The notes: generated from the sequence alone by a model not told the origin. A DNA stretch of 64,000 nt from Halobacteria archaeon (GCA_036733165.1 DAINBB010000003.1:7546-71545); one strand, 5' to 3'; shown: positions 2,687 through 64,000, numbered from the stretch's first letter. Translations and numbers: made by a program.

Positions 2687-3861
2687 TGGTCATCAAGGAC
2701 GAGGAGATGGACTTCGAGTTCTCAAAGAAACTTGAGAAGGAGCTTGAGAACAGCTTTGCGAAGTGTTTCCAGTGCGGTACCTGCACAGCCAGGTGCCCCG
2801 GGGGCGTCATCTCCGATTACAGGACAAGAAAGTTCATGAGAATGGCCCAATTGGGTCTAAAGGACAAGATACTGGGCTCAGAAGACCTATGGAACTGCAC
2901 GACATGTTCCACCTGCAAGATCCTTTGCCCTTGGGAAGTAGACCCCCTATCCACGATCTTGAAGCTGAGAAGGGAAGCGGTCAAGGCCGGCAAGGAGAAC
3001 AAGAAGCATGATCCCCTAGTGAAGAGCCTTATCAACTATGACAACCCCTGGTTGCAACCAAGGGCGGCAAGGAAGAAATGGTACAAGGGTCTCGATGTCG
3101 TTGACCTCTCAAAGGAACCCGGCAAGGCGGATGTGCTCTATTACGTTGGATGCACGGCCACCTTCGACAAGAGGCTGTGGGGCATGTCAAGATCTGTGGT
3201 CAAGGTCCTCAACAAGGCAGGCATCACCGTAGGTGTGCTTGGCAAGGATGAGAAGTGCTGCGGAGGTACTGTCCGCGGTGTGGGTCATCCAGAGATCTTT
3301 GAAGAGCTGGCGAAACAGAATGTAGACGATCTCAACAACGCCGGCGTGGACACTATAATATTCTCATGTCCCGGATGTCTCAACACGATAAAGAACGCAT
3401 ACAAGGCCGAGAAGATAGGGGAAATAAAACCCAGGCTCATTCATGTCGTTGAATATGTGGACGAGCTTCTCAAGGAAGGCAAGCTGAAACTTGACAAGGA
3501 TGTCAAGAGGATAGTCACATACCATGACCCATGCCACCTTGGAAAGCACTGTGAGGTTTTCGATGCCCCGAGGGATATCCTCAAGGCCATCCCTGGACTT
3601 GACTTCAGGGAGATGAAGTTTGTAAGAAAGGATTCCTGGTGTTGCGGTGCCGGCGGAGGCGTGAAGACTGCATTCCCCGAGCGCGCGACAGAACTGGCGG
3701 TCAATCGTCTGGATCAGGCGGAGGAGACGGAAGCTGACACGATATGCAGCGCATGCTCGTTCTGCTATCAGAATCTTTTGGACGGTCTGGTGGCCAAGAA
3801 GGATTCCAAGATGGAGATGAAAGATATTATGGAACTTGTAGCGGAGGCGATTGAGGAATGA
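2686..3861 (+). CDS. hdrD: HdrD-like iron-sulfur/CCG-domain oxidoreductase (HdrC-like 2x[4Fe-4S] ferredoxin fused to an HdrB-like tandem CCG domain)
   Basis: CFQCGTCTARCP and CTTCSTCKILCP ferredoxin motifs. Two CCG domains (…GCTATFD…KCCGGTV… and …HDPCHLGKHC…WCCGAGGGV). TAATG overlap with mvhD, and RBS AAGGAGGGG upstream. Confidence 0.8.
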   Translation: MVIKDEEMDFEFSKKLEKELENSFAKCFQCGTCTARCPGGVISDYRTRKFMRMAQLGLKDKILGSEDLWNCTTCSTCKILCPWEVDPLSTILKLRREAVKAGKENKKHDPLVKSLINYDNPWLQPRAARKKWYKGLDVVDLSKEPGKADVLYYVGCTATFDKRLWGMSRSVVKVLNKAGITVGVLGKDEKCCGGTVRGVGHPEIFEELAKQNVDDLNNAGVDTIIFSCPGCLNTIKNAYKAEKIGEIKPRLIHVVEYVDELLKEGKLKLDKDVKRIVTYHDPCHLGKHCEVFDAPRDILKAIPGLDFREMKFVRKDSWCCGAGGGVKTAFPERATELAVNRLDQAEETEADTICSACSFCYQNLLDGLVAKKDSKMEMKDIMELVAEAIEE

Positions 3862-39667: not shown

Positions 39668-40180
39668 TTATCTTTTGCGTTCGATGCGCATGCCCTCGTA
39701 GAACGGCATGAAGTACAGGGTGGCAACGCCTATGATCAGAAGTATCTGCATGTTCGTCTGCCCCTCACCCATGAAGTATATGTCATAGAGGCCGAACCGT
39801 GACAACAGTCCGAACGTGATGATTATCGCTGCCAGATAGAGCATTGGGGGAACGTATTTCCTGTTCCTTCTCAACCTGAGCCATGGTAGCCCCATACCCC
39901 TTGCCTTGTTGAGAGTGTGTTCGAGTGCGACCAGCATTGGCAGCAATATGGCAATGGTGAACGACAGCGTGGACGTATCGAACGCGTTCTTGAAATGAAA
40001 GAGATGGGAGAGGATCATTGCGTCCGAGAACGCTATCAGGAGCAGACCTCTTTCGTTCCACCTGTATGTTAGGGCGATGGACAGGATGGCCAGCAATGAA
40101 AGCATGACAAGATACTGCCACGCCACTCCGGAGTAAATGCCTATTGCGAGGGAGTAGAATGAGAACAGAATTGCCATCAT
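39668..40180 (-). CDS. Polytopic membrane protein, terminal gene of the MoxR operon
   Basis: 170 aa, about 5 TM helices; 4-nt overlap with the DUF58 gene. Confidence 0.45.
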   Translation of the reverse strand: MMAILFSFYSLAIGIYSGVAWQYLVMLSLLAILSIALTYRWNERGLLLIAFSDAMILSHLFHFKNAFDTSTLSFTIAILLPMLVALEHTLNKARGMGLPWLRLRRNRKYVPPMLYLAAIIITFGLLSRFGLYDIYFMGEGQTNMQILLIIGVATLYFMPFYEGMRIERKR

Positions 40181-41592
40181 GACAGTTCACCCTTTATCTT
40201 TGGATATATGATACTAAGTGTGTCTTCGGGCGTCTCTTCGATTATCCTGACCCCGACGTTCCTCATCGTGGACATGTTCCTCCTCTTTGTCAGATAGTTC
40301 TTGTAGAGCCCTTCGGCAGTCTTTATGTCCATTGAGGAGATATCCATGTCGTACCATGGGGAATATGGCGTGATGAGAAGGACCTCCCCACCCCTGGAGC
40401 TTATCATCTTGATGGTGTCAATCAATGCCTTCGAGTTCGATTCAAGGTCCGAGATCACCAGCATCAGGCTCTTTTCGTACTTCTCCCCCATCGCCATGAC
40501 GGTACTGTACAGTCCCGATACGCCCATGATGGACTTGACGGCCCTTCTGCTGCCTGAGAGGTATGGCAGGACCTTTCCTAGGAATTCCTTCGATTCCTCA
40601 TCAAGCGCGTCCTGCTCATATCTGGGGTCGAGAGGATATGTCGCCCTGTACGTGTCAGGCAGCCTCTCGAGCGAGGAGAGGATCGTGCTGTACTGTCCCC
40701 TGTTGAAGAAGGCCGGCACGTTCTCGACCACAGTGTGCTCATCGAAGGCTATGAATCCTGTAGGATTCTCATGTTCAAGGAATATCTTCGTCAATTGCAT
40801 TGTGAGAAGTATGGAATGATTGAACTTGGACCTGTCACCATATGTTGCCCTCATAGACCTGGAGACGTCAAGCAGGACGTATATGCTGCCATACCCCTCC
40901 GCTTCTGAGAGCTTTGTGAGCAGTTTCTGGAGCCTTGACGAGGCCTTCCAGTCTATGTCGGATATCCTGTCCCCAGGTTGGTACTCACGTATCCCTGCAA
41001 AGTCCATCCCTGTGGTGAGCACAGTTTCCTCCTCGACCAGCTCCTCCCTTGAAGAACCTTTTGCAATGTAATCGGCCCTCTTGATCCTGTCTCTGGAATC
41101 CTGGTATGTTATCTCGTTGCGGAGGTCGTACCCCCTCTGGAACATGAACAGCCCCCGCTTGTCAACTACATTGGTCTCAATGGCCTCGAAGACGGCCGTT
41201 CCCCTGCTTTCCCTCACAAGGTCATACGAGTACTCTATTCCCCTCAGGGAGCTGACGACATCGGTATGGACGTTGCTCCCCTCCAGCACGAACGAGTCCT
41301 TCGGGATCCTATCCTTGATCTCGAGGAAGACCTCGTCCGTGAACGGATAGGAGTAACTGACGCTGACCCTTACGGGTTCCTTAGCGAAATAGGTCTTCTT
41401 TTGGATGTTCCTTTGTATGTTCACGTCTTGACTGTCCACGGCGGCGGCGAACGATGATCTGCAGAAGAGGATGTATGAAAGTACGCCGATGCCAAGCAGG
41501 GAGGGAAGGACATTTCCAGAGAGATAGCTCTGCAAGAAGAGCACGAAGATCAGTGCGAACAATATCCTTGCGTCCCTACTAAGTTCCATCAA
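40177..41592 (-). CDS. DUF58-domain protein (vWA-like partner of MoxR) with N-terminal TM helices
   Basis: DWKASSRLQKLLTKL…IYVLLDVSRSMRA is the DUF58 core. Confidence 0.7.
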   Translation of the reverse strand: MMELSRDARILFALIFVLFLQSYLSGNVLPSLLGIGVLSYILFCRSSFAAAVDSQDVNIQRNIQKKTYFAKEPVRVSVSYSYPFTDEVFLEIKDRIPKDSFVLEGSNVHTDVVSSLRGIEYSYDLVRESRGTAVFEAIETNVVDKRGLFMFQRGYDLRNEITYQDSRDRIKRADYIAKGSSREELVEEETVLTTGMDFAGIREYQPGDRISDIDWKASSRLQKLLTKLSEAEGYGSIYVLLDVSRSMRATYGDRSKFNHSILLTMQLTKIFLEHENPTGFIAFDEHTVVENVPAFFNRGQYSTILSSLERLPDTYRATYPLDPRYEQDALDEESKEFLGKVLPYLSGSRRAVKSIMGVSGLYSTVMAMGEKYEKSLMLVISDLESNSKALIDTIKMISSRGGEVLLITPYSPWYDMDISSMDIKTAEGLYKNYLTKRRNMSTMRNVGVRIIEETPEDTLSIIYPKIKGELS

Positions 41593-41597
41593 TTACA

Positions 41598-43013
41598 CTA
41601 CCTTTTCTCCAACGGTACTTTGATGTTCTCCAAAATATTGTTGATTACCCCCCCTATCGAACCCTCCTCGGGGTCCAGGTCGGGGGATGGCAGCAGTCTG
41701 TGGTTCAAGGTGTCATACACAACGTCCTTCACGTCATCGGGTATGATGTAGTCCCTCCCCCTTATGCAGGCCTTTGCCCTTGCGGCGTACAATAGCTGTT
41801 CCGAGGCCCTCGGGGAGGCGCCGATGGTGATCAGTCGGCTGTTCCTTGTGGAGGCTATGATCTCGTTGATGTACTCTATGATGCTTTCATCGACAAACAC
41901 GTTGTCATAGGCCTCTTCCAATCTCTCGAGGTCGAAGACCTTTGGGGGAGCATGACTGGTCCGTTTCCCGTTTGCCTTCATCCTCAGGAGCTCTAGCTCC
42001 CTTTCCTTTGATATATAGCCCATGTTTACCTTTAGCATGAATCTGTCTGCCTGGGCCATGGGCAACTGGTACACTCCGTCGTGTTCGATTGGATTGATCG
42101 TGGCGATCACCATGAAGGGTTGGGGCAGCACGAAGGTCTTGCCCTCTATCGTGACCTGTTTCTCCTCCATGGACTCCAAGAGTGCGGACTGGGTCTTTGG
42201 CGTAGTACGATTTATCTCGTCGGCCAAGAGCAGATTGGAGAAGATGGGTCCCTTCCTCAGCTCGAACTCATGGGCCATCTGGTTGTAGAAGAAGTGACCG
42301 GTAATGTCCTGCGGCAGCATGTCTGGCGTGAACTGTATCCTCTGGCATTCCATTCCCAATGTCGATGTGAATGTCTTGGCGAGGGTCGTCTTCGCGATTC
42401 CTGGAACGCCTTCGAGGAGGACATGCCCCCTTGCCAGAAGGGCTATCAGCAAGTTCTCGACAATATCGTCATAGCCGATGACGACACGGCTGATCTCCCG
42501 CTTGAACTCCTGGACCATGTCCAGGATATCTTTGTTCAGGCAGCCTTCCGCCGGCATGTCGCCAAATATGCTGTCTCTGACGACGTTAATTGGGGATACT
42601 TCATCGTTCACGGCCTGGGGGGGAATCTGCTCATCCTCGAACATGTTCTCGATGATCTCGCCTTTCTCAGCGACGACGGGGGATACGTCGGCCGGTGGCT
42701 CGCCCTCCTCATACAGGTCCTCGGGCGCTTCAAACGTTTCCACGCGTTCGTTGGGTGGCATCTGTTCTTCGATGGCCATGTCATCTTCGGCTGCCTGATC
42801 CTCGTAGACCGTTGTTTTTTCATGCTCGGACGCTTCCTCTGCCGCGATGGGCTCTTCGGGCGTCTTTGCGTCTTCTTCCCTGTCCTCCGTCATTGCCGCC
42901 GTTTCGTCGATATTGATGTTTTCCAAGTCCTTGAGGGTCTCTTCCATATCCTTGTATATCTGGGCGATGGTGTCCTTGACCTCCTCATGGGACAGTTTTT
43001 TCGTTTCTTCCAT
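41598..43013 (-). CDS. MoxR-family AAA+ ATPase with an approximately 150-aa acidic low-complexity N-terminal extension
   Basis: LLEGVPGIAKTTLAK Walker A; QFTPDMLPQDITG typical of MoxR. The N-terminus is E/D-rich. Confidence 0.85.
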   Translation of the reverse strand: MEETKKLSHEEVKDTIAQIYKDMEETLKDLENINIDETAAMTEDREEDAKTPEEPIAAEEASEHEKTTVYEDQAAEDDMAIEEQMPPNERVETFEAPEDLYEEGEPPADVSPVVAEKGEIIENMFEDEQIPPQAVNDEVSPINVVRDSIFGDMPAEGCLNKDILDMVQEFKREISRVVIGYDDIVENLLIALLARGHVLLEGVPGIAKTTLAKTFTSTLGMECQRIQFTPDMLPQDITGHFFYNQMAHEFELRKGPIFSNLLLADEINRTTPKTQSALLESMEEKQVTIEGKTFVLPQPFMVIATINPIEHDGVYQLPMAQADRFMLKVNMGYISKERELELLRMKANGKRTSHAPPKVFDLERLEEAYDNVFVDESIIEYINEIIASTRNSRLITIGASPRASEQLLYAARAKACIRGRDYIIPDDVKDVVYDTLNHRLLPSPDLDPEEGSIGGVINNILENIKVPLEKR

Positions 43014-43022
43014 ATAATCCCC

Positions 43023-44120
43023 CTACCTGAACTTTGAAAAAAATGAATTGAGACCTGAAGCCTGCCATTCCGGATGCATCTTCTTAAGCGAATCTATCAA
43101 TTCCTTCCTATCCGTACTTCTTAAAGATGTTTCCTTACCGAATTTAAACTTATTTATAATATGTCTTGAGACCGAACCGACATACGATAACAGATTGCCC
43201 TCTATCACGAGCACGATCAAGAGGAATGATATGATGATGTATCTGAAGAGGGGATTGTTAGGCATGGTGAGCACCACGTTGAACCTCTCTATGTCCTCCA
43301 AGGTGCCAAGATGCGCCTCGTCTATGTATACCGTCTTTGAGTAGTTGTCCGTGATATCCTCCATCATATGATGTAAAAATGCCATGTTGTCCATCTTGCC
43401 GATCATGTTGTTTATGAGGATGCTGGGGTCGGAGATCATGTACACGATCCCGTCCCCTATCTCCACGCTCGCCACGACCGTAAAGGGCCCGCTGATATCG
43501 CCTTTGCCATAGGAACCGTCCTCATCTATGTCCAGGAATGCCATGCTTGTGGTCTCGAATATCGGTATCACGTCCCCTTCTATGGTGGAAGGGTAGTTGA
43601 GGAGCAGGCTGTACTCAGAGAGCTCGCCTCCCTTGTAGGCTATGGGGAATGCACCCGCCTTTTCGAAGACGGTGTCCAGCATCGGCAGATTGCTGAATCT
43701 TGCCTCGAGCCCTATCCCTTCAAGTACTTCGTTCCCCGTGCCGAAATCGTCGGCTATGAGCAGTGTGCCGCCACCCTCGACAAATTGCCTCAAGAACGCT
43801 TTTTCGTCCCCCGAGTAGCTTGCCCTTGGCCCTATTATGACCACTACGGAGTCATTGTAATCTCCCTCCAGGGTCTCTGACAGGTCTCCGAAGAACGCGT
43901 TGAGGTACCTTTCCTCGTTCATCTCAAGGTCTATGGCACTGACGTTCTCCATATAATCCCTATAGAATCCCGAGGTCCCGTTCCAGCCATTGTTAAAGAC
44001 ACTGAAGTCCGAGGACCTTGAGAGGTAGGGCACCACCAACGGGACGAATATGAACACTATGACTATGATAAAGATAAGAAGATAGACGTAGAACTTCTTC
44101 ATTCCTGGCGAAAACATCAT
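43023..44120 (-). CDS. DUF4350-like membrane-anchored protein
   Basis: N-terminal and C-terminal TM helices, extracytoplasmic middle; gene-context match to MoxR/DUF58 operons. Confidence 0.5.
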   Translation of the reverse strand: MMFSPGMKKFYVYLLIFIIVIVFIFVPLVVPYLSRSSDFSVFNNGWNGTSGFYRDYMENVSAIDLEMNEERYLNAFFGDLSETLEGDYNDSVVVIIGPRASYSGDEKAFLRQFVEGGGTLLIADDFGTGNEVLEGIGLEARFSNLPMLDTVFEKAGAFPIAYKGGELSEYSLLLNYPSTIEGDVIPIFETTSMAFLDIDEDGSYGKGDISGPFTVVASVEIGDGIVYMISDPSILINNMIGKMDNMAFLHHMMEDITDNYSKTVYIDEAHLGTLEDIERFNVVLTMPNNPLFRYIIISFLLIVLVIEGNLLSYVGSVSRHIINKFKFGKETSLRSTDRKELIDSLKKMHPEWQASGLNSFFSKFR

Positions 44121-45775
44121 CTCCCACCACCTATCCTTCCGACAACGTGTCTGACAGACCTGAAGAACGAGCTTTTCCTGTCTTTTCCTATGTCCCTCCC
44201 GGAGTACCTTGCCAGTTCGAAGGTGGCGGTTATGTCCCTGACCTCGTTGGCCGAATCCGAGATCGTTCTCAGTTCCCTGTCTATGTCCGTATGGGTCGTC
44301 GACGGGTGCAGATGCACGACCCTGCGGACCGCAAGGAACTCTATCATCCTGGAATAGGCGAGTATCACGGATTCCTTGACATTTCCTATCTTCTCAAGAA
44401 TGCCCAGTTCAATCAGGAACGTTTCCCTGCGTCCAATATCCTCCATCCCTTCCGTTTCTGGGGACGAGGATTGCATATCTTTTCTCGCATGGCCATCTCT
44501 CCAGTGCACGAGAAGGGCGATAACAAGGCCCGACACCACCGTAATTGCCAACAGCATCTCATATATGTTATTGGAACCTTGCCCTGCCTCTGTTACATGG
44601 GTGCTGAACTCAAGGGCCTGCGACCTGCTTTGAACGAACGGGGCACCTTCCTCAGGGACAAACTCTGCGTACACAACATAGTCAGCATCGTCGATGCCCT
44701 GAACAGTATGTTCGAATAGGCCGTCTTCCCCGGTGACGATGTGGGTCGCCTCCCCGTTTATGTTCAATAAGACGTTCCTGTCTTCCAATCCGTGCCCATA
44801 GATGTCATCAAGCCTGCCTGTAAATAATATGGAATAATCGTTTCCTGCCGGCCCCTGTCCCCTCGACAGTGATATCGTTGTAGGTATTTCGACATACACC
44901 TCAATCTCGTCCGACAGTATTGTCTCATATTGATATGTGGTCTGGGCCATTATGTTAATATGGTCGAAGTCGGCATTGACGGGAAGGTCGTAAAGATAGC
45001 TGAAATGTCCATCCTCGTCAGTTTCAAGCGTTATGGCCGATCCGTTGATGACCAACCCTATGTCGTGAAGTCCCACGGGCAGACCTTCAAAATAGAGATG
45101 TCCATCGACGATAAGCCTGTAGTTCTCGCTAGACCCTGTGTCATATGCGCTGATAAACAGGCCGTTGCCCTGGTACCCATTGTTCTCCATGAGTGCGTCT
45201 ATGGAATCCCTGTAGGTATCGAGGGTGCCCCTGAGCAGCGATATGGAGGCTGCCACGTTCCCCGTCTCATAACCTAATCCTAAAAGGCCGGATGCCGCCT
45301 CCTCGAGATTGTCAAGTCTTGACTCTATCTGGGCGAGCATGTTATCGGCAATTATTATGTGTGATCCGATGTCCGGTCCATCCCCCATCGTCTCAAGGCC
45401 CTCCAGGAGCGTTTTCAATTCTGGCTGGATATTGATGATGCCGTACAGCTGTTCATAAATCGCTTGGAATGACCGATAGTAGAGTGGGAGAAGCTGTTCT
45501 TCAAGTTCCTTGGTGTCCAGCTCTAGCACTATTTCCCCCGGGACCGCAAGGTCGTTTGAAAGTGTTCCTATCCCTTCCATGGCACCCTGGAAGTTCTCTT
45601 GGGAAAGGTGGAAGACCGCATCGGATATGATAGTCACATCGCCCATGAAGTATGAATGCAGGACCTCTGGGTCCTCCATGGCCTCGTTTATGTTCTGGTG
45701 AGAAGGCGAACCCGCCAAGGGGCATGAGGACATTAGCACTATGGCCAACGCGATGGCCAAATGATATTTTCTCAT
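44117..45775 (-). CDS. Secreted/membrane protein with C-terminal DUF4129-like cytoplasmic domain
   Basis: Signal peptide; CarboxypepD_reg-like beta-sandwich segment; TM helix near residue 420; C-terminal …TFELARYSGRDI… resembles the DUF4129 motif. Confidence 0.5.
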   Translation of the reverse strand: MRKYHLAIALAIVLMSSCPLAGSPSHQNINEAMEDPEVLHSYFMGDVTIISDAVFHLSQENFQGAMEGIGTLSNDLAVPGEIVLELDTKELEEQLLPLYYRSFQAIYEQLYGIINIQPELKTLLEGLETMGDGPDIGSHIIIADNMLAQIESRLDNLEEAASGLLGLGYETGNVAASISLLRGTLDTYRDSIDALMENNGYQGNGLFISAYDTGSSENYRLIVDGHLYFEGLPVGLHDIGLVINGSAITLETDEDGHFSYLYDLPVNADFDHINIMAQTTYQYETILSDEIEVYVEIPTTISLSRGQGPAGNDYSILFTGRLDDIYGHGLEDRNVLLNINGEATHIVTGEDGLFEHTVQGIDDADYVVYAEFVPEEGAPFVQSRSQALEFSTHVTEAGQGSNNIYEMLLAITVVSGLVIALLVHWRDGHARKDMQSSSPETEGMEDIGRRETFLIELGILEKIGNVKESVILAYSRMIEFLAVRRVVHLHPSTTHTDIDRELRTISDSANEVRDITATFELARYSGRDIGKDRKSSFFRSVRHVVGRIGGGR

Positions 45776-45967: not shown

Positions 45968-47287
45968 ATGGCAAATGACACTAAGAAGATTGGAGCTGTA
46001 GCATTGACCGCTATAGTGATCATAGCTGCTATTTTCATATTTTACGACAGAGGCCCCGACCAGGACCTCACAGAGGCCTTGGGAGAGAACACCGAGTTCT
46101 CCGACCTCTTTGACGCTTTGGAGTCAACAGGAATCCTTGAGGGCCTTGCCGGAAGCGAATACACGATACTGGCCCCCACTGACGGCGCCTTCGACGACTA
46201 CGATACAGAGCTTTATGGCGACCTTCTGGAGGACACCGACTCCCTTGGGGCATTGTTGAACTATCACATCATAGAAGGCAAGTACTCTGTGGCAGATATA
46301 TCGAAGATGTCTACCGTAACGACACTGCAGGGAGAGGTTATCTCGATATCCACGACCGGCAATGTGACGGTTAACGATGTTGAGATATCCCAGAGCGAGG
46401 AGATAGAGTGCGAGAACGGATATATCATCCCCGTGGGCGAGATACTCCTGCCACCAACCATCGAGAGTACCTACATCGACCTGACGATCACGGATGCTGC
46501 TGGAAGGGAGGTATACATCAAGAAGGTCCCTGAAAGGATAGTATCGATTGCGAGTTCCGCCACGGAGACGCTGTATGCGATCAATGCGGGGGACCTCCTG
46601 GTCGGAAGGGACAAGTACAGTGTCTATCCTGAGGAGGCCAACGATCTTCCAGATCTCGGCAGCGGTTCATCCCTCGCCCTTGAGGAGACATTGAACCTGA
46701 ATCCGGACCTTGTGATCACGTGGTACTACAGCACCTCGGCGATAGAGAGCCTTGAACAGAACGGAATAACCGTCCTTGCCATAGGGCCGTCATCGGTTCA
46801 GGACGTACTGGACCTTATCACGTTGTTTGGTCAGATATGCGACCACGAAGCCGATGCCCAGGCCATAGTCCAAGATATGCAGACGACCATCGATGAGATC
46901 TCATCATATGCGGAATCCTTGTCCGAAGATGAGAAGGTCAAGGTGTTCTACGAGCTGTCAACCGCCTTCAAGAGCGTGAGCGACCAGACGTTCACAGGGG
47001 AGCTTATAGAGCTTGCGGGGGGCATAAACATCGCGGCGGACCAGGAGGCGACATATCCGCAGATGTCCAGCGAATGGATAATAGACCAAAATCCCGATGT
47101 TGTTGTCGTTGTCTCATACGGCGCCACAACGGACGAGATCAAGTCAAGGGACGGTTGGGACTCCATCGATGCAGTTTTAAATGACAAAGTGTATTCTATT
47201 GAGAGCAACTGGGTCAGTTCTACCCCTAGAATGGTATTGGGGCTTGAACAGTTCGCCAAGTGGTTCTACCCTGAACACTTTGCGTGA
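45968..47287 (+). CDS. Siderophore/cobalamin-type (BtuF/FepB-like) ABC substrate-binding protein with an N-terminal fasciclin (FAS1) domain
   Basis: FAS1 motifs YTILAPTDGAFDD, LLNYHIIEG and NGYIIPVGEILLPP. Then BtuF-like IVSIASSATETLYAINAGDLLVGRDKYS…NPDLVITWYY. N-terminal TM anchor. Confidence 0.75.
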   Translation: MANDTKKIGAVALTAIVIIAAIFIFYDRGPDQDLTEALGENTEFSDLFDALESTGILEGLAGSEYTILAPTDGAFDDYDTELYGDLLEDTDSLGALLNYHIIEGKYSVADISKMSTVTTLQGEVISISTTGNVTVNDVEISQSEEIECENGYIIPVGEILLPPTIESTYIDLTITDAAGREVYIKKVPERIVSIASSATETLYAINAGDLLVGRDKYSVYPEEANDLPDLGSGSSLALEETLNLNPDLVITWYYSTSAIESLEQNGITVLAIGPSSVQDVLDLITLFGQICDHEADAQAIVQDMQTTIDEISSYAESLSEDEKVKVFYELSTAFKSVSDQTFTGELIELAGGINIAADQEATYPQMSSEWIIDQNPDVVVVVSYGATTDEIKSRDGWDSIDAVLNDKVYSIESNWVSSTPRMVLGLEQFAKWFYPEHFA

Positions 47288-55910: not shown

Positions 55911-56159
55911 TTTTGCTTTTTTCTTCAATTGAATTTTAGTATTTACAATGTAGTAATTGCATTATTTCCTTATTTTTTTTATTTTACAGTAAAACCACTG
56001 CAAAAAGTATTTAAAGGAAAAGTTACATTAAATGCCTATATAGCTATACGGAGTGTTGGAGCGTGAACATGTTCGAAAAAGTAATCCAATTAGTTAATGG
56101 TATATTTACACACGATTCTGATACAGATTTTGTCAATGATAAGTATGGTTGGAGGTTTA

Positions 56160-59100
56160 ATGATGCGACCTGTATATAAGAAGGGAATTTCGATATTATT
56201 TGGAATATTGATCGTTATGAGCCTCGTCTACATCAACGTCGGCTCCACCCGTGCGGCATCTGCCATCACTGGCGCTACTGATGCCGTTTGGTACGACACG
56301 GACGGAAATGGGGTCTTCGATGCTGGAGAGGGGATTGGGAACATCAATGTTTATCTGGACAATTCAGGGGTGGTAGTTGCAACAACGGATGCCAACGGTT
56401 CCTTCCCTGATGTGTTCGCAACCGCTGATTCAGACCTTGATTGGGATGGAGAGCACTATCTAACATTCAAGGCTGATGGTTTCAGGACTGTGACATACAA
56501 TGTCAGCAACGTTGCTGGGGTATATGCTCTTCCGGCAGGGTCGGTCCAGATGGTCACCCAGGACAGCATTTACGGAAGGGTGGTCGACGACGACGGACAA
56601 CCGGTGGCGGGCATCACCATCGAGGCATTGGTGTATGGCACAGGCATCGTGGCCACCGATGTTGTCGGGGGAACGGCCCAGACGGTCACTGATCAGTACG
56701 GTAATTATGTTATAAAGGGATTGCCGGCGGCCACTTACGACATAAGGTCCAAGAAGGCCGAGTACATAACCCAGATCCTGACCGGTGTGAAGGTCGTTTA
56801 CGGCAAGACAACGGAGAACGTCAACTTCACGATGGTGCCTAACTACGGGTCCATCACGGGTCATGTGACAGACGGCGCGACGCCGATACAGGGCGCTGTC
56901 GTCTCCATACCAGGCCTTGGACTATCCGCCGTCACGGACTCGAACGGACAGTACACCATAACGGATGTAATGCCGGGCAGCTACACGATGATATGTGAGA
57001 AGGACGGTTACAAGATATGTGTTCTATACTATAATGACACTGGATCGTCCTATGCTTGCAACCCTGCCGACTATTCGCCATTCGTCCAACCAGGTCCGTC
57101 CGTGACACCTGTCTCTGCAGACTTCAACCTGGAGCCTGAACCGCTGACACCGGTGAATGGATACATCTCAGGTCTCCTCACTGATGAGGACGGGACCCCG
57201 ATAGAATGCGCATATGTGACAATTCCGGGGCTGGGAATGGAAGTGTGCACTGACAAGGGCGGCTACTACATATTCGAGGAAGTTCCCAACGGGGAGTACG
57301 ATGTGTTGGCCCAGGACCCCAATCCAACCACGGGGACCTTGGAACACAAGTCGGCGAAGGCGAGAATTGATGTGATACAGGGCGAGAACTCAGATGCCGA
57401 CTTTTCACTGGACAACAACACGGGTTTCATCGTTGGACAGATATATGATAAGGATGCATTGCCCGTCAGCGGCGCGTCTGTGACCATACCGAACTCCACA
57501 ATATCCTCACTTACCGACCTGAACGGCTGGTATGCCCTTGAGGATGTCGATGTGTGCAGGTATTCCGTATATGACTACACTGCGGAAACGATCACCTACG
57601 TAGTGGCCAATGTTGTCGTAAAGGCATCAAATTCGGACTACAACTCCAACACGCTGATAGTGGAGCCCATACCTGCGAACGGTTCGTACTATAATACATA
57701 TAATATTAATATATTCAAGAAAACTGGCGTCATCAAGGGACAGGTCTATGAAGTAGGGACCGGACAGCCTATCGAGAACGCTAGGGTCAGGGTCTACGGC
57801 AGGGAGGCCATCACCGACGAGAGTGGCGTTTACGAGTTCGTAGGCGTCCCTGTGGGAAGTTACACTGTCGTCGCAGGTGAGGGCCCTGAACAGACATACA
57901 CCGAGACGACCTATGACATAGTCATAGCGACCAACGTGACCGTAGGATCAAATGCGCAGACGATGAAGAACTTCTATCTCCCTGACGACACCAGCTCGCT
58001 CTACGGATACGTATCTGGCATATTATACGATGATGTCAACGGGAGCTCGGGCTTCTCTGAAGGCGAGGGTCTCTCTGGCGTCACCGTTGAGATACCTGGA
58101 TACTCCATTGTGGAGACCGATGACTTCGGATTCTATATAGTCTCAGCCGATGCCGGTGACCATTATCAGGTCATATACGGCGACGACTACGAGTGGGTGA
58201 ACAACGGGCTTGTCACATTCACAAGCGATGTTGAGGATCCGGGCAACGACCTTGAACTTGTCAGGAAGACCGGAGAGCTTATAGGAAACGTTAGCGAGGA
58301 CGGCGCGCCTGTCGAGAGTGCCGAGCTGTGGGTTCCCCAATATGACAACGATTGGGAAGAGGGGTCCACATCGGTAGTACAGGTGACATCCGACGCATAT
58401 GGTAACTACGCCTTCGCAGATTCCTATTCATTGGAGAAGGGCAGACATCTTCTCGTAGTCCAGAGATGGGACGACGGAAACATGTCATTCGAGTTCGACT
58501 TATCATTCGTCAACATAGCATCGACCGTTACCAAGAACGTGTCCCTAACACGTGAGACGGGACGCGTCGAGGGTTACGCATGGGACGACCTCGATGGCGA
58601 TGGCCTCAAGGACGTTAGCGAGCCATACCTTCCGGACGTGGAAGTGTCTCTCTCGAAGGTTTACTCGACGATGACAGACAGCACGGGTTACTACACGATA
58701 TTGGACGTGCCTGTCACCTTGGACAGGTCGACCACACATCCGACACCCGCATACGAGATAAACAGGTACACCGGCATAGCCTACCTTACAGGTTATGACA
58801 CCGAGACCTACGTCATCGATCCGCCTGTGGCTGCCGATCCGGAGATATACGATCACACGAGCATTGCCACAGTAGAATACGTGGACTGCAACAACATAGC
58901 GATATTTGAGGACATATCACTCTCAGATGTCACGACAAACATCGACTATCCCTTGGACAAGGCCGACCCTCTGCCAGTGACAGGGTCCGTGTCGGGCTAT
59001 GTGAACCTTGACATGAATCTGATAAATGCAGAGGCCGAGGTCTGGATAGAGGGCACGAACATGAACACATGGTCGGACATCGAAGGATTCTGGATAATCC

Positions 59101-62100
59101 TGGACGTGTCCCCTGACAACTATGCGATACAGGCCGGAAAGCCCAACTACGTGTCCCAGATACAGGCGAACGTGCCGATAATAGAGGGATACGAGAGTGA
59201 GAACATAGACTTCTCCCTGGAGAAGGACGGTTTCATATATGGTACCGTCTTTGAGGACATAGACCACGATGGGATAAAGGACGCGACAGACGTCCCGATA
59301 CAGGGCGCTGTGGTCACCATCGCTGGCAAACAGGTCTACACTGACTCCAATGGAGAGTTCATCATAGACGACGTCTATGCCAACGCCCCCTACAACGGGT
59401 ACACAGTGACGGCAACGAAGCAGAACTACACGATGGACGTCGAGTATGATGTGGAGGTCATACACGCCGATCCAAACGGCACAGAGGTCAACTTCCTCCT
59501 TGAGAAGTATGAAGGATTCTTCATAGGCAAGGTATCTGACCACTCCACCATGGATGGCATTGCGAACATTGATGTCTATGCCATGGACGATCTGATCACC
59601 AACAACACCGAGACGGGAACGACGGACGACGCAGGTTACTATGTGATCGAGGCCAACAGGGGCACATACACGCTCCAGGCCCCCATGGAACCAAACGCGA
59701 CCGACTATGTCACCAAGGAGATCTACGACGCTTCCCTCGGCGGGTACTCGATAACCAGGGAGAACTTCGTGCTGTGGGACGAGACGACAATGCCTGACAA
59801 CAATGTGTTCGGCATCGTTTACCGTGATGACAATTCAAACTCGACCTATGATGACGGAGAGGAGATCGGTGGCGTCCAGGTGTCCATACCGGGCCTTGGC
59901 ATGACAGTGATCAGCGCCACGGACCTGACGGACCCGGACGGGACGCCGAACTCTGGGGACGAGTACAACTACATATTCATGGATGTCCCGAACAACGGCT
60001 ATCATTACACCGTCACTGCAAAGATGGCCATCCCAGGAACATCGCCTACCCAGTACATAATCGAGTACATAGTGAATGTCGAACCTTCGACAACGGTCCA
60101 GTGGAACATAGGGATGGAATGGCCTCCGACGAGCCCGTACGACTCGTGGATAGAGGGCATAGTGTTCTGGGATGAGAACGGCAACGGCACGGTCGACGAG
60201 AACGAGAGACTGGCCGATATGGACGTTTACATACCAGGGTCATCCGTCGACAACGAGGTCGCCACGGCATTCCTGACGGCCGTTACGGACTCCACGGGAT
60301 ACTACATCATAGATGACATCCCTTCAAGGATAGATGACGTGTCAGTGACATGCACGGTCCTTGCAGGGGAGCCAAGTGCCACCGCAATCTATGAGATTGG
60401 GATCCAGAGGAATCTCCCGATCCAGTCAGGACTGGGCACATGGATAGACTTCCCGCTCGTGAGGACGACATCGTACACCTCGGCATACATCTTTGGAGAG
60501 GTGTACTTCGATGCCGATGACTCTGGCACATACGACGTTGATGATACTCCCTACACCGAGGGCATACTCAATGCCACACTCACAATAGGTTCGGACACGC
60601 AGACGACCGACAGCTTCGGTTTCTACATATTCGACGGGCTCACGGCGAACCAGACATATCTGGTAAACGTCACCGCAAACGGTTATGAGGACCACAACGA
60701 GTATGAGACCGCCAAACTCGGTTACAACGCGAAGGTGAACTTCTCAATGACAAAGGAGGCCAACTCCATATCTGGCTTCGTCTTCGAAGACGTCAATGAG
60801 AACGGTATACTGGACGCGGGCGACAAGATAATCAACGCCAAGATAACCGCGGTCAAGGACGGTGGCGGAAACTATGAGGCTTACACGGACGCCACAGGTT
60901 TCTACCTGCTTCCAAATCTGCCGGTTGGCGACTATGACATAGTGTGCACGCAGATCGTCAGCGGTCTTGAGCTTCCGGAATACCAGGACTGGACGTATCT
61001 TGACAATCCGGTGACCATCACCGCAGGCAACGCGGCCACGGTGGACATCCCGATGGCAAGGTACTATGTCGATGTCGACGGAACTGTCACGGATTCGGAC
61101 ACGTCGATGGCAATAGTGAACGTTACAGTGGCTTGGTACTCTCCAGATGACTTCGTAACGCCTAGATATATAGCACTTACAGACCTTTACGGAGATTGGA
61201 GCACCAGCGCCAACCCTGGCTCGGATGATGACTGGAACCATGCTGACCTTGATGGCGACGGAATTGTCGACCCAGACGAGGTCGGCGTACCTGTAGGCAC
61301 ATGGTACGTGGTATTCTCCGCAACAGGATACAACACCACTTCAAAGTGGGTGGTGCTGGACTATGATGACTATCCGGGACCAATAACGATCGACATTGAG
61401 CTTGATCCGACATCGGCCGATGTCGGCACCCTGGAAGGTTCCGTGACCAACAATAATGGCGGCACACCGATAGAGAACGCCACGATCACGGCAACGAACC
61501 AGACCACGCTTGACATATTTGCCATACAGAGCCTGGCCGACGGCAGCTACTCGCTAGTGGTGCCGGAGGGAACATACGATATAGTGTGCTCCAGGGTCGG
61601 ATTCGTCAGCGAGACTGTGACAAATGTCGTTGTGGGAATAGGCGCCACCGTCACCAACGACTTTGGCCTTGACCCGGCCGGAGGACTTGGCGACATCGTA
61701 GTGAACGTTGAGGACGAAAGCATGAATCCGCTCGACGATGTGCTCGTGACGGTATGGTACCAGAGCCCGACATCGAATCTGTTCGAGATCATCGTGGATG
61801 GCCTCACGACCGCTGGAACGATCACGTTCGTGGACGTGCCGGAAGGCACGTACTATGTATGTGCATCCGACAACGACAACGACAGGATAATGCAGACCGA
61901 GGAAGTGGTCCTCGCTGCAAATGCCACAGAGACAGTGGACTTCACGCTTGTTGACGGAACATCATCGACGATAACGCTTGACGGAACGACATCGCAGTGG
62001 TACCTGCTTTCGCTGCCGGTACTGGTCGAGGACGATACCTTCTGGCCGGCACTGCTATACGCAAGCGGTATAGACCTGACGGATTGGGACATGATAGCTT

Positions 62101-62531
62101 CATGGAGCAATACGACCGACGCCTATGAATACTATGACATGACGCTTTCGAGGACCACGGAGTACTGGCTTGTAAGGGACCCGTCCCTGACATACGAACC
62201 GGGCGTGTGGATCCACATGGAGGCCGGAACATACAATCTCAAGGTAGTGGGCACTGAGGAGACGAGTGTGCAGTACACTCTGCCCGGAGGCCACTGGTCG
62301 CTCGTTGGCTACGCGTTGACAGCAGATGGCAACCCGATCGCGACGGCGCTTGAGCAGACTCCTGAGGACTCGGTGAATCTCATGTGGACATACGACATAC
62401 CACCTACGGCGGCAGAGTTGTATGACCCAAGGGGTAGATTCGTACCTCCAGACTTCACCACGTTCGACATATGGCATGCCTACTGGGTCTATGTGGACTA
62501 TGACTGCACATTGACAATATCCTCCCCATGA
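56160..62531 (+). CDS. Giant secreted surface protein (about 2,120 aa) of about 18 tandem CarboxypepD_reg-like / SdrD-B-like Ca-binding beta-sandwich repeats, a distinct approximately 190-aa C-terminal domain, and no membrane anchor
   Basis: Signal peptide after MMRPVYKKGISILFGILIVMSLVYINVGSTRAASA. Recurring G-x-V-x-D-x-x-G-x-P-I-x-G-A-x-V-x-I-P-G motifs and DxDxDG Ca-sites (DDLDGDGLKD, DIDHDGIKD, DLDGDGIVDPDE). RBS GGAGGT 56151-56156. Confidence 0.8.
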   Translation: MMRPVYKKGISILFGILIVMSLVYINVGSTRAASAITGATDAVWYDTDGNGVFDAGEGIGNINVYLDNSGVVVATTDANGSFPDVFATADSDLDWDGEHYLTFKADGFRTVTYNVSNVAGVYALPAGSVQMVTQDSIYGRVVDDDGQPVAGITIEALVYGTGIVATDVVGGTAQTVTDQYGNYVIKGLPAATYDIRSKKAEYITQILTGVKVVYGKTTENVNFTMVPNYGSITGHVTDGATPIQGAVVSIPGLGLSAVTDSNGQYTITDVMPGSYTMICEKDGYKICVLYYNDTGSSYACNPADYSPFVQPGPSVTPVSADFNLEPEPLTPVNGYISGLLTDEDGTPIECAYVTIPGLGMEVCTDKGGYYIFEEVPNGEYDVLAQDPNPTTGTLEHKSAKARIDVIQGENSDADFSLDNNTGFIVGQIYDKDALPVSGASVTIPNSTISSLTDLNGWYALEDVDVCRYSVYDYTAETITYVVANVVVKASNSDYNSNTLIVEPIPANGSYYNTYNINIFKKTGVIKGQVYEVGTGQPIENARVRVYGREAITDESGVYEFVGVPVGSYTVVAGEGPEQTYTETTYDIVIATNVTVGSNAQTMKNFYLPDDTSSLYGYVSGILYDDVNGSSGFSEGEGLSGVTVEIPGYSIVETDDFGFYIVSADAGDHYQVIYGDDYEWVNNGLVTFTSDVEDPGNDLELVRKTGELIGNVSEDGAPVESAELWVPQYDNDWEEGSTSVVQVTSDAYGNYAFADSYSLEKGRHLLVVQRWDDGNMSFEFDLSFVNIASTVTKNVSLTRETGRVEGYAWDDLDGDGLKDVSEPYLPDVEVSLSKVYSTMTDSTGYYTILDVPVTLDRSTTHPTPAYEINRYTGIAYLTGYDTETYVIDPPVAADPEIYDHTSIATVEYVDCNNIAIFEDISLSDVTTNIDYPLDKADPLPVTGSVSGYVNLDMNLINAEAEVWIEGTNMNTWSDIEGFWIILDVSPDNYAIQAGKPNYVSQIQANVPIIEGYESENIDFSLEKDGFIYGTVFEDIDHDGIKDATDVPIQGAVVTIAGKQVYTDSNGEFIIDDVYANAPYNGYTVTATKQNYTMDVEYDVEVIHADPNGTEVNFLLEKYEGFFIGKVSDHSTMDGIANIDVYAMDDLITNNTETGTTDDAGYYVIEANRGTYTLQAPMEPNATDYVTKEIYDASLGGYSITRENFVLWDETTMPDNNVFGIVYRDDNSNSTYDDGEEIGGVQVSIPGLGMTVISATDLTDPDGTPNSGDEYNYIFMDVPNNGYHYTVTAKMAIPGTSPTQYIIEYIVNVEPSTTVQWNIGMEWPPTSPYDSWIEGIVFWDENGNGTVDENERLADMDVYIPGSSVDNEVATAFLTAVTDSTGYYIIDDIPSRIDDVSVTCTVLAGEPSATAIYEIGIQRNLPIQSGLGTWIDFPLVRTTSYTSAYIFGEVYFDADDSGTYDVDDTPYTEGILNATLTIGSDTQTTDSFGFYIFDGLTANQTYLVNVTANGYEDHNEYETAKLGYNAKVNFSMTKEANSISGFVFEDVNENGILDAGDKIINAKITAVKDGGGNYEAYTDATGFYLLPNLPVGDYDIVCTQIVSGLELPEYQDWTYLDNPVTITAGNAATVDIPMARYYVDVDGTVTDSDTSMAIVNVTVAWYSPDDFVTPRYIALTDLYGDWSTSANPGSDDDWNHADLDGDGIVDPDEVGVPVGTWYVVFSATGYNTTSKWVVLDYDDYPGPITIDIELDPTSADVGTLEGSVTNNNGGTPIENATITATNQTTLDIFAIQSLADGSYSLVVPEGTYDIVCSRVGFVSETVTNVVVGIGATVTNDFGLDPAGGLGDIVVNVEDESMNPLDDVLVTVWYQSPTSNLFEIIVDGLTTAGTITFVDVPEGTYYVCASDNDNDRIMQTEEVVLAANATETVDFTLVDGTSSTITLDGTTSQWYLLSLPVLVEDDTFWPALLYASGIDLTDWDMIASWSNTTDAYEYYDMTLSRTTEYWLVRDPSLTYEPGVWIHMEAGTYNLKVVGTEETSVQYTLPGGHWSLVGYALTADGNPIATALEQTPEDSVNLMWTYDIPPTAAELYDPRGRFVPPDFTTFDIWHAYWVYVDYDCTLTISSP

Positions 62532-64000
62532 TGGTGAAACTGATGAGAAGATATCCTATAGGTCTCGCACTGGCTCTTATCGTGCTCCTCAGCGCGGTCC
62601 AGGTAGCCGGTGTGACCTATGAGCACTACATCGTCTGGGACGAACAGGAAAGGGTGGTGTATGCCGGGAACAGCGCAGAGTTCAATCTGACCATAGTTAC
62701 CACGGCACAAGGCACACCCACATCCACTCCCTCTCCCACGAATCCGCCGACCACGTGGCCTACACCGCCACCACCACCAGACGATTCGGCTTCCCTAGGT
62801 CCGCTGTCATATTCCATGAACGGAGCCGCGGGCGCTGTCCAATCGTCCTTTTCCCTGGCAGATATTAAGAATGTCTACCTGAGCGCAACGGCACCCCAGG
62901 GGTGGGATGTCGAGCTTTCAGCCGACACGCTTTACATGAACGGAGAGGACTCGGAGGAAGTGCTGGTGGAGGTGACATCCCCTTCGGATGCCGAACCCGG
63001 AGTTTACTCCATACTCTTCACTGCCAAGATGGAGGGGGTGGACAAGACCGTAGAGCTGCTCGTGAGGGTGCTCGACCCGTTCGATGTATTCATCTCGAAC
63101 ATATCCTACAGTCCCGCCGAACCCCAGTTGGGACAGGAGATAACGTTCACGGCGGACGTTACCCTTGACGGGAACGTACTGATACCGACAAAGACTGTCG
63201 CACTCTACATAAATGACATCTCCCAGTCGAAACTTGCCAGTGTGGAGGTAGATATAGATCCAAATTCCACAGAAACCATATCTTTAACATGGACCGCAAG
63301 CCAGATCGGTGACTTCACCGCAAGATTGTATCTAAACCCGACCAGCAACGAGTCCGACCTCACCAACAACGAGATATCCACAACGATATCGATACTGCCT
63401 GCCGAGGACCCATGCACACTTGCAGATGATACATACGCCCTGGCACTTGGTATGTATGATGAGGACTGCCAGTCCGCGATGTCAACCCTCGCGGTGGCCA
63501 AGGCCTTGTACGAACAATGCGGGGACACAAACGGCGCGACGCTGTGCCAAGAGCTCATAGACAAGTGCGAGGACTACACCCTAGCCGAGGAGCTGGAGTC
63601 ACAGGGGGACGTACTGGCCGCAAATGGAGATTGCGAGGGCGCCATAGCGAAATGGGAGGCGGCCATAGCGATCTATGAGGACTATGGTGACCAGGACAGG
63701 ATAGATTCCCTTAACACGAAGATTGACAATTGCGAATTGGAGCCAGAGCCGGAACCCCAGAAGGGATTCTTTGGCAAGTACTGGAAGTGGATAGTCTTGC
63801 TTCTTGTCGCTCTACTGCTCTTGCTAATATTACTGTACTCCAGAAGGAAGAAGGAGGACGAAGGCGACACCACGTTTGGTATCTATCCATCCGAGGGCGG
63901 AGCCAAGAAGGAACCCGATTCCTTGTTCGGAGGGCCGCTTGAGGAAGAGCTGGAGATCCCGCCTGTGATACCGATACCCTTGGTGACGAGAAAGGACGAG
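62528..64000 (+). CDS. 3'-partial membrane-anchored surface protein: signal peptide, Pro/Thr-rich linker, CARDB-like domain, Cys-rich helical region, TM helix, cytoplasmic tail
   Basis: Open frame from ATG 62528 to the window end. PTSTPSPTNPPTTWPTPPPPPDD linker. CARDB-like …ISYSPAEPQLGQEITFTADV…LTNNEIS. TM WKWIVLLLVALLLLLILLY. Overlaps the stop of the giant gene (ATGA). Confidence 0.7.
   Translation, partial: MMVKLMRRYPIGLALALIVLLSAVQVAGVTYEHYIVWDEQERVVYAGNSAEFNLTIVTTAQGTPTSTPSPTNPPTTWPTPPPPPDDSASLGPLSYSMNGAAGAVQSSFSLADIKNVYLSATAPQGWDVELSADTLYMNGEDSEEVLVEVTSPSDAEPGVYSILFTAKMEGVDKTVELLVRVLDPFDVFISNISYSPAEPQLGQEITFTADVTLDGNVLIPTKTVALYINDISQSKLASVEVDIDPNSTETISLTWTASQIGDFTARLYLNPTSNESDLTNNEISTTISILPAEDPCTLADDTYALALGMYDEDCQSAMSTLAVAKALYEQCGDTNGATLCQELIDKCEDYTLAEELESQGDVLAANGDCEGAIAKWEAAIAIYEDYGDQDRIDSLNTKIDNCELEPEPEPQKGFFGKYWKWIVLLLVALLLLLILLYSRRKKEDEGDTTFGIYPSEGGAKKEPDSLFGGPLEEELEIPPVIPIPLVTRKDE

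Follow-up and report, generated by a model that had tools for sequence, protein, structure and literature searches.

A giant β-sandwich repeat protein and a neighboring membrane protein as a candidate two-component surface structure of an uncultured methanogen

Repeats of the SdrD type are expected to form a rod-like stalk, and in SdrD-type adhesins this stalk supports a terminal binding domain. The Sdr proteins end in an LPXTG/sortase C-terminus and possess an N-terminal ligand-binding A domain. In the two-component surface layer (S-layer) of the Sulfolobales, SlaA (1,424 amino acids, aa) is a β-rich, glycosylated protein with a signal peptide and no anchor, and SlaB (475 aa) comprises N-terminal β-sandwich domains, a helical region and a C-terminal transmembrane (TM) helix and contacts the C-terminal domain of SlaA (PMC10903991). 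The euryarchaeal S-layer protein csg of Haloferax is glycosylated and built as a linear series of immunoglobulin (Ig)-like domains (PMC10903991); it has six domains and its own PGF-CTERM/archaeosortase anchor. The VARTIG proteins of the Thermococcales are characterized by a hypervariable C-terminal Ig domain and by the C-terminal motif D[ND]NxxxG[GD] (PMC8416519). Here a 64,000-nucleotide (nt) stretch of archaeal DNA (GCA_036733165.1, DAINBB010000003.1:7546-71545, labeled Halobacteria archaeon; hereafter the window) was analyzed, the source of which is, on sequence grounds, a Candidatus Methanofastidiosa archaeon, an uncultured methanogen. The window encodes a giant repeat protein of 2,123 aa that has no C-terminal anchor and that is followed, in every related lineage recovered, by a gene for a predicted membrane protein, termed the partner. 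The chances appear evenly balanced that the two constitute a two-component tethered surface structure in which the C-terminal module of the giant protein docks non-covalently on the downstream membrane protein. The features of the pair are as follows.

56160-62531, + strand: coding sequence of the giant protein, predicted to be located at the surface, 2,123 aa plus TGA stop codon
56160-56264, + strand: predicted signal peptide MMRPVYKKGISILFGILIVMSLVYINVGSTRAASA, with a basic n-region, an 18-aa h-region and an A-x-A type c-region
56298-61949, + strand: 19 tandem prealbumin-like β-sandwich domains of ~80-100 aa each (aa 47-1930), of CarboxypepD_reg/SdrD_B type
61953-62246, + strand: module repeat 1 (aa 1932-2029), a divergent copy of GWNLIS.P...GYWI, here QWYLLSLP...GVWIHM (alignments A1-A3)
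62247-62528, + strand: module repeat 2 (aa 2030-2123), GHWSLVGY...LMWTYD...LYDP...HAYWVYVDYDCTLTISSP, at the end of the protein
62533-62537, + strand: GGTGA, Shine-Dalgarno-like site within the 11-nt spacer between the stop codon (62529-62531) and the ATG at 62543
62543-64000, + strand: partner gene, which continues past the end of the window; 556 aa in the public record
63767-63838, + strand: predicted TM helix of the partner, FFGKYWKWIVLLLVALLLLLILLY, from a hydropathy scan, followed by SRRKKEDE; kept in the related loci L001 and L003

In outline the pair would resemble SlaA and SlaB, its closest functional precedent, although the domain types differ. A large protein of 2,123 aa without an anchor is encoded together with a smaller one of 556 aa that contains NEW3 and CARDB domains, a helical region and a TM helix, a likeness of architecture only. 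However, SlaA has domains of complex topology whereas the window protein is a linear array of 19 prealbumin-like repeats, and the partner has a cytoplasmic tail of ~110-130 aa and a Cys-rich helical region instead of a long trimeric coiled coil. The Haloferax csg protein shares with the giant protein a euryarchaeal, probably glycosylated, serial-domain character, but the window protein has 19 domains rather than six, and it bears no PGF-CTERM: nothing hydrophobic follows aa 30 and no NCBIfam entry matched. In the VARTIG loci of a sister lineage, the operon opens at its 5′ end with a large Ig-domain gene, which precedes small membrane-protein genes, and CARDB-type domains also occur (PMC8416519). 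The window locus is instead syntenic and stable and not a variable island. Membership in VARTIG was rejected as the C-terminal module is 52-82% identical among orthologs compared to 46-78% for the rest of the protein, and as the VARTIG motif is not found in the last 15 aa, which end in CTLTISSP. The Sdr adhesins share the repeat families PF17210 and PF13620 and DxDxDG-type loops, present here in seven repeats. Unlike these proteins, the window protein possesses neither the LPXTG terminus nor the A domain, its host is archaeal, and its sole distinct domain is C-terminal. Bacterial relatives of the module carry a ~110-aa domain and a sorting domain (Por_Secre_tail, PF18962) of the type IX secretion system (T9SS) after the module, whereas Pfam matches to the sorting domains PF18962 and PF13585 were absent from the window protein; the module is not itself a sorting signal, and we know of no T9SS in archaea.

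The repeat array accounts for most of the giant protein. A first-pass annotation, made from the DNA alone, had described a secreted protein of about 18 calcium-binding β-sandwich repeats, and both families that it had proposed for domain parsing were matched far above their cut-offs: PF13620 (CarboxypepD_reg) with E = 2.7e-105 and 345.3 bits (cut-off 32.3) in 11 stretches, and PF17210 (SdrD_B) with E = 2e-36 and 125 bits (cut-off 29.7). A third Pfam family, PF13715 (CarbopepD_reg_2), also far exceeded its curated cut-off (1.4e-53, 179.3 bits). NCBIfam models gave no match to the protein. A hidden Markov model (HMM) iterated on the repeats themselves resolved 19 units over aa 47-1930, 15 full-length and four partial or degenerate, and thus the array stands but the earlier count was slightly low. 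The calcium-type loop D/N-x-D/N-x-D/N/S-G-x-x-D/E occurs seven times (aa 46, 810, 1033, 1338, 1451, 1544, and 1696), four times in the strict DxDxDG form, and a TDxxGxY hairpin is found 17 times. The seven SdrD-B-type loops are putative calcium sites by motif, and they cover about a third of the repeats rather than all. The protein is acidic, with a calculated pI of about 4, has high proportions of T, V, D, G, and Y, and contains 28 N-x-S/T sequons where about 20 are expected. The repeat region is an ordinary member of the CarboxypepD_reg/SdrD_B families. The ortholog P0003 (L002 4732-11862) attains 2,376 aa because of an additional insertion of ~250 aa within the array (aa ~1190-1430, EALDGWSAYGEEDMLL...FLSVDHFIFSD). 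This segment, which looks like a different and possibly carbohydrate-binding-type β domain, is absent from the window protein.

Hydropathy analysis (19-aa window, Kyte-Doolittle >1.6) detected a sole hydrophobic stretch in the giant protein at aa 5-30, and a C-terminal TM helix or PGF-type tail is therefore missing. The C-terminus, DYDCTLTISSP, yielded no TM helix, PGF-CTERM, LPXTG or T9SS tail with Pfam, NCBIfam and hydropathy, in agreement with the earlier view that neither a TM helix nor a sorting signal is present there. The wider proposal that the protein has no membrane anchor of its own is firm for the C-terminus, whereas the N-terminal hydrophobic segment could stay in the membrane. 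Cleavage of the signal peptide is suggested by the form of the c-region.

The C-terminal 192 aa (Trp 5.4%, Tyr 8.1%) correspond to the Trp/Tyr-rich end domain of ~190 aa noted previously. This domain had been considered unique. Instead, it belongs to a large family in bacteria and archaea, here designated the GWNL-GYW module, that encompasses at least 215 proteins and at least 120 genome loci. Family members consist of two tandem β repeats of ~85-90 aa with the consensus GWNLIS.P...VW.YD...W..Y.P...PG.GYWI...TLT. Searching 1.84 billion representative sequences with the window module by phmmer recovered two orthologs, with 81% and 55% identity, and canonical small proteins (P0005-P0008) with E-values from 3.7e-6 to 7.9e-4. 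The 1,201-aa repetitive protein P0004, which scored 9.7e-7 in this search, was ignored, since motifs of the module are missing from it and the match has the look of an artifact of composition or repeats. Conversely, an HMM constructed from canonical members only, without Methanofastidiosa sequences (A4), matched the window module at E = 3.7e-5 and the L002 ortholog at 7e-11. The window module ends two residues before the stop codon. All four hallmark Trp residues are retained in the window module, but GWN is replaced by QWY in repeat 1 or HWS in repeat 2, and GYW by GVW or AYW. Thus, the window module is a divergent member of the family. Conservation of the module equals or exceeds that of the remainder of the giant protein, with identities of 82% vs. 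78% and of 52-55% vs. 46-51% in the orthologs.

Structure predictions were generated for the module with AF2. The whole module was modeled with a predicted local distance difference test (pLDDT) score of 87.6 and a predicted template-modeling (pTM) score of 0.84, and repeat 2 alone folded confidently (pLDDT 92.1, pTM 0.81) as six strands and a helix. No Pfam or NCBIfam family matched the last ~192 aa, and a sequence search of the PDB with the module profile A2 also gave no match. A single-repeat profile (A5) matched in the PDB only designer SAKe Kelch-type propellers and Keap1, over ~25 residues that include VW.YD...W..Y.P (aa 39-67 of A5, window ~62360-62450), with no individual stretch over threshold. 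Homology of the module with Kelch proteins was rejected: the shared hairpin is short and the modeled repeat, with six strands and a helix, is not a four-stranded blade. The hairpin may nevertheless hint at a very distant or convergent tie to Kelch blades. The module possesses a lone Cys located seven residues from the end (DYDCTLTISSP). An intermolecular disulfide or metal site involving this residue and Cys residues of the partner is conceivable, but a disulfide with the seven conserved Cys of the latter was set aside since the module Cys is found in a minority of the family (17 of 45 and 13 of 68 members).

The first-pass annotation had proposed that cell attachment must be provided in trans. 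This is plausible, and it is made more concrete by the next gene, which that annotation missed and which starts 11 nt downstream and encodes a predicted type I membrane protein. The start at 62543 fits those of orthologs that begin MRRY, MRKY or MRTY. The partner comprises a signal peptide, NEW3/NPCBM_assoc and CARDB domains, the former interrupted by a Thr/Pro-rich insertion, a helical region of ~110 aa with seven conserved Cys residues, the TM helix and a cytoplasmic tail of ~110-130 aa. The domain assignments exceed the Pfam cut-offs (NPCBM_assoc 30.8 bits, cut-off 24.4; CARDB 30.2 bits, cut-off 22.7), and an N-out/C-in topology is predicted from the positive-inside rule. All seven Cys residues (window 63440-63760, aa ~290-405) are kept in a 69%-identical ortholog. 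The database entry P0125, which is 100% identical to the partner, is named 'NEW3 domain-containing protein [Candidatus Methanofastidiosa archaeon]'. Homologs of the partner form five clusters among 5.8 billion proteins, all from this clade, and each directly follows an ortholog of the giant protein; a sixth copy, 39% identical, follows a 55%-identical giant ortholog in L002. The pairing is thereby conserved in six of six lineages (window/L009, L001, L002, L003, L131, and L133), and in all six the intergenic spacer is 11-19 nt and contains GGTG(A/G). Across these lineages identity ranges from 82% to 52% for the module and from 72% to 39% for the partner.

The giant gene itself was traced to the same lineages. 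The longest open reading frame (ORF) of the window at this position (56097-62531, + strand, 2,144 aa) is identical over 2144/2144 aa to a gene on the ENA contig ERZ27264001:k141_896267 (L009). Exact-sequence look-ups with the 2,123-aa and 2,144-aa forms gave no match, and the identical gene was reached via the partner. Orthologs are 78% identical in L003 and 46-51% identical in L002. The closest relatives found are labeled hypothetical or are nameless, and the gene is thus apparently known but uncharacterized.

The wider module family was surveyed with profile searches of proteins, in which module hosts included Syntrophales, Dehalococcoidia, Kapabacteria, Colwellia, Nanoarchaeota, and Ranarchaeia, among others, and with a two-gap degenerate DNA pattern applied to 185,579 species genomes. 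The latter yielded at least 120 loci, all those listed being confirmed by the module HMM; the counts of loci that follow refer to the loci listed. Bacterial hosts comprise Chloroflexota, Desulfobacterota, Bacteroidota, Ignavibacteriales, Zixibacteria, KSB1, Verrucomicrobiota, Kiritimatiellota, Nitrospiraceae, Acidobacteriota, and the Candidate Phyla Radiation (CPR), and archaeal hosts comprise Methanosarcinales, Methanoregulaceae, Bathyarchaeia, Thermoplasmatales, and several DPANN groups. The passengers N-terminal to the module are diverse and include CarboxypepD_reg, fn3, Calx-beta, Big_5, CARDB, TIG, peptidase M10, P-proprotein, and RHS. No family recurred above noise in Pfam and NCBIfam scans of 45 module sequences, and a literature search for the GWNLIS and GWNLIG motifs returned no papers. 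The family and its coupling to anchor-bearing partners appear to be undescribed in Pfam-A 2025, NCBIfam 2026, the PDB, and open-access full text. On one bacterial contig (L006 4754-6783) two 260-aa CarboxypepD_reg genes adjoin and the module ends only the second; the first terminates in an unrelated basic tail and looks like a frameshifted or decayed copy.

The module is typically terminal: in the protein set 65 of 73 full matches, and in the genome set 61 of 108, stop no more than 5 aa short of the C-terminus. Eighteen proteins, from Bacteroidota, Ignavibacteriales, Zixibacteria, KSB1, Acidobacteriota, and some unclassified bacteria, carry a domain of ~110 aa and then a T9SS sorting domain after the module, Por_Secre_tail being confirmed on one example at 1.8e-7. 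This order places the module at the cell-proximal end and indicates that it is not itself the secretion tag. In archaea, Chloroflexota, and CPR, the gene 3′ of the module gene very often specifies a signal peptide, a domain of ~100 aa, a low-complexity linker and a C-terminal TM helix. The ~100-aa partner domain, with the consensus P.IP.QFyG.VtvnG.PAPDGt.V.A..., was matched by its HMM at 49 of the 120 loci. It resides in a separate same-strand ORF less than 600 nt downstream at 28 loci, and 20 ORFs contain both domains as a fusion, the partner domain lying before the module, after it, or on both sides. This fusion/fission (Rosetta-stone) pattern, read from gene and domain order, provides the strongest comparative evidence that the module may work with an anchor-bearing protein. 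The partner domain is absent from Pfam, with only sub-threshold matches to CarboxypepD_reg (hhalign probability 25%). At L012, L017, L047, L057, L060, L104, and L129, large and otherwise unrelated proteins of T9SS bacteria end in a fixed four-part cassette with the order partner domain, module, partner domain and Por_Secre_tail.

The window partner has the signal peptide and TM helix of a family-typical anchor protein, but not its ~100-aa domain. That it might be a divergent version of the typical partner was rejected, as the partner-domain HMM gave no match at E<10 and the hhalign probability was 0.3%. At the distant locus L007, the partner domain, two CARDB domains and a TM helix are combined in the downstream protein, and the gene after it encodes a NEW3-repeat protein; this locus links the window-type and family-typical partners.

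A mechanism for the Methanofastidiosa pair can be proposed. The giant and partner genes would be co-transcribed and translationally linked. The giant protein, probably glycosylated, would be exported by the Sec pathway with subsequent removal of the signal peptide, and its 19 β-sandwich domains would fold as a long rod, ~60-80 nm if extended, stiffened by calcium loops in about a third of the domains. The C-terminal module would then dock non-covalently on the partner ectodomain, and the TM helix of the partner would tether the rod to the cell. The assembly may be an S-layer or canopy, or a fibrillar adhesin. Both the physical binding of module and partner and the surface location and rod shape of the giant protein are deduced in this scheme from domain content and gene order.

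Several observations weigh against docking. As the window partner is not homologous to the typical partner domain, the family-wide argument transfers to this locus only by analogy of gene order and topology. Within the family, no match to the partner domain was found within 8 kb at 71 of the 120 loci, and in some bacteria (Syntrophales) the gene downstream of the module does not encode a TM helix. The partner domain is moreover a remote prealbumin-like relative, and co-occurrence with the module could therefore partly reflect a general clustering of surface genes. Foldseek comparison with the PDB provided no functional clue, with best E-values of 0.059 for the module and 0.3 for a single repeat. 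Finally, the N-terminal segment of the giant protein could be an uncleaved anchor.

This last point underlies the alternative that survives best, but which is nonetheless unlikely, namely that the giant protein is a self-anchored adhesin whose N-terminal helix remains uncleaved as a signal-anchor or class III signal, with the module as a distal ligand-binding head and the downstream protein as an accessory. The N-terminus, MMRPVYKKG-ISILFGILIVMSLVY, has a basic residue and Gly ahead of the 18-aa hydrophobic run, as have the orthologs (YRKG-VSVLFG and LKKG-GSIFLG). Archaeal class III signals possess this arrangement, and the KKG-I motif bears a loose likeness to a class III (prepilin-type) site. 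In addition, the repeats of SdrD-type adhesins serve as a stalk for a terminal binding domain, and the module is the only non-repeat domain. However, the c-region after the hydrophobic run is conserved in the orthologs as A-x-A/S (STRAASA and SSRAANS), which is typical of cleaved Sec signals. A distal head also fits poorly with the T9SS relatives, in which the module adjoins the sorting domain at the cell-proximal end, and with the anchor-bearing protein that is adjacent to, or fused with, the module family-wide.

It is also quite improbable that the module acts as a lectin, binding glycan or polymer in the envelope of the cell itself, on Thr/Pro-rich stalks, on a substrate or on a partner organism without a specific protein partner, so that carbohydrate would hold the protein on the cell or mediate aggregation with syntrophic partners. 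The repeats are small β-sandwiches, rich in aromatic residues (W 5.4%, Y 8.1%) and bearing conserved Trp/Tyr motifs of the surface type, and have the appearance of such a domain, and the weak fold neighbors include carbohydrate-binding modules (CBM6, CBM11, and CBM16) and a collagen-binding domain, but none of these fold matches is significant. The great diversity of passengers, among them peptidases and RHS proteins, is likewise that of carbohydrate-binding modules, and the partner proteins carry low-complexity Thr/Pro/Gly/Ser linkers; yet carbohydrate-binding modules, unlike the GWNL-GYW module, do not as a rule occur only at the extreme C-terminus, and strict pairing with a specific downstream gene would be left unexplained. 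Release of the giant protein into the medium or a biofilm matrix, for example as a calcium-dependent fiber, with adjacency of the membrane-protein gene reflecting envelope co-regulation, is the least probable alternative: it accords with the lack of a covalent or lipid anchor signal of known kind and with several bacterial module proteins that have no obvious anchored neighbor, but not with a tight two-gene unit in six of six lineages that has a Shine-Dalgarno site in an 11-19-nt spacer, nor with fusion of the module in other phyla to T9SS surface-attachment signals, which argues for surface retention.

Docking of the module on the partner can be extended to the family only with considerable doubt. 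It is possible that the GWNL-GYW module and the partner domain are a non-covalent dock-and-anchor system by which many bacterial and archaeal phyla retain large surface proteins, and of which Methanofastidiosa would have a variant with a diverged module and a NEW3/CARDB replacement anchor. Archaea and monoderm-type bacteria would use a TM helix as the anchor in this system, and the sampled members of the Fibrobacterota-Chlorobiota-Bacteroidota (FCB) group, Acidobacteriota, and KSB1 would use a T9SS sorting domain.

The giant gene is preceded by the following signals.

55999-56034, + strand: putative promoter block TGCAAAAAGTATTTAAAGGAAAAGTTACATTAAATG, a purine-rich element like the B recognition element (BRE) and the TATA-like box TATTTAAA
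56150-56155, + strand: GGAGGT, Shine-Dalgarno-like site read from the sequence; kept in L003

The spacer 5′ of the giant gene is 249 nt in length with 27.7% GC compared to 50.3% GC for the window. The 36-nt BRE/TATA-like block lies ~125 nt 5′ of the start codon and is invariant in four loci (window, L003, L131, and L002) even though the L002 protein is only ~50% identical. We take the block to be a promoter from the archaeal BRE/TATA consensus. The AT-rich promoter and strong ribosome-binding site described in the first-pass annotation are therefore upheld as a strong, conserved expression signal. The start codon at 56160 is in an ATGATG sequence with GGAGG 5-10 nt 5′ and is supported by the N-termini of the orthologs, MRPIYRKG... 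and MNSALKKG...; the in-frame ATG further upstream at 56097 is the start chosen by gene callers. If transcription begins just past the TATA-like box, the 5′ leader (window 56036-56159) is unusually long at ~120 nt. More conserved stretches occur inside it, for example GTGAACATGTTC. An Rfam scan of the long leader and upstream region matched no family, including no riboswitch.

Gene order around the pair (polyprenyl synthetase, giant gene, membrane-protein gene, rpoK-like gene, FEN1) is conserved in L001, L003, L009, L131, and L133, and in L002 as far as that shorter contig reaches. Elsewhere in the window the gene content is in keeping with a methanogen-type archaeon and includes genes for HdrA/MvhD-like, CCG-domain (HdrB-like), phosphoenolpyruvate (PEP) synthase-type and P-type ATPase proteins, for arginine biosynthesis and for an ATP-binding cassette (ABC) importer. 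An Hdr/hydrogenase-like cluster (60-8083, + strand) includes two HdrA-like FAD/4Fe-4S proteins, one of which is fused to MvhD/FlpD, and a protein of 650 aa in which four CCG (HdrB-type) domains occur, consistent with methanogen-type energy metabolism. Genes for a MoxR-type AAA ATPase, a DUF58 protein and a DUF4129 protein of 552 aa follow one another at 40177-45775 (- strand), as in the usual MoxR-DUF58-transglutaminase-like membrane cluster. At 45968-47287 (+ strand) the substrate-binding protein of a FecCD/ABC importer has an N-terminal fasciclin domain (Fasciclin 6e-24, Peripla_BP_2 1.4e-37), a fusion that is kept in L003.

The Methanofastidiosa are a class of uncultured methanogens that is common in anaerobic digesters and sediments, and literature searches on their cell envelope and surface proteins returned nothing relevant. 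If docking is false, the locus encodes an ordinary giant repeat-type surface protein. If it is true, it would represent a widespread protein-protein mode of anchoring beside S-layer homology (SLH) domains, cohesin-dockerin, sortase, and PGF-CTERM, and would permit better annotation of many 'hypothetical' surface proteins: the module family is carried on peptidases, RHS and adhesin-like proteins in dozens of phyla and is linked to a second undescribed domain that carries an anchor. For the Methanofastidiosa, the locus is a candidate for a major surface structure and for the mode of its attachment, and the giant protein and its partner might be the main envelope layer of this class.

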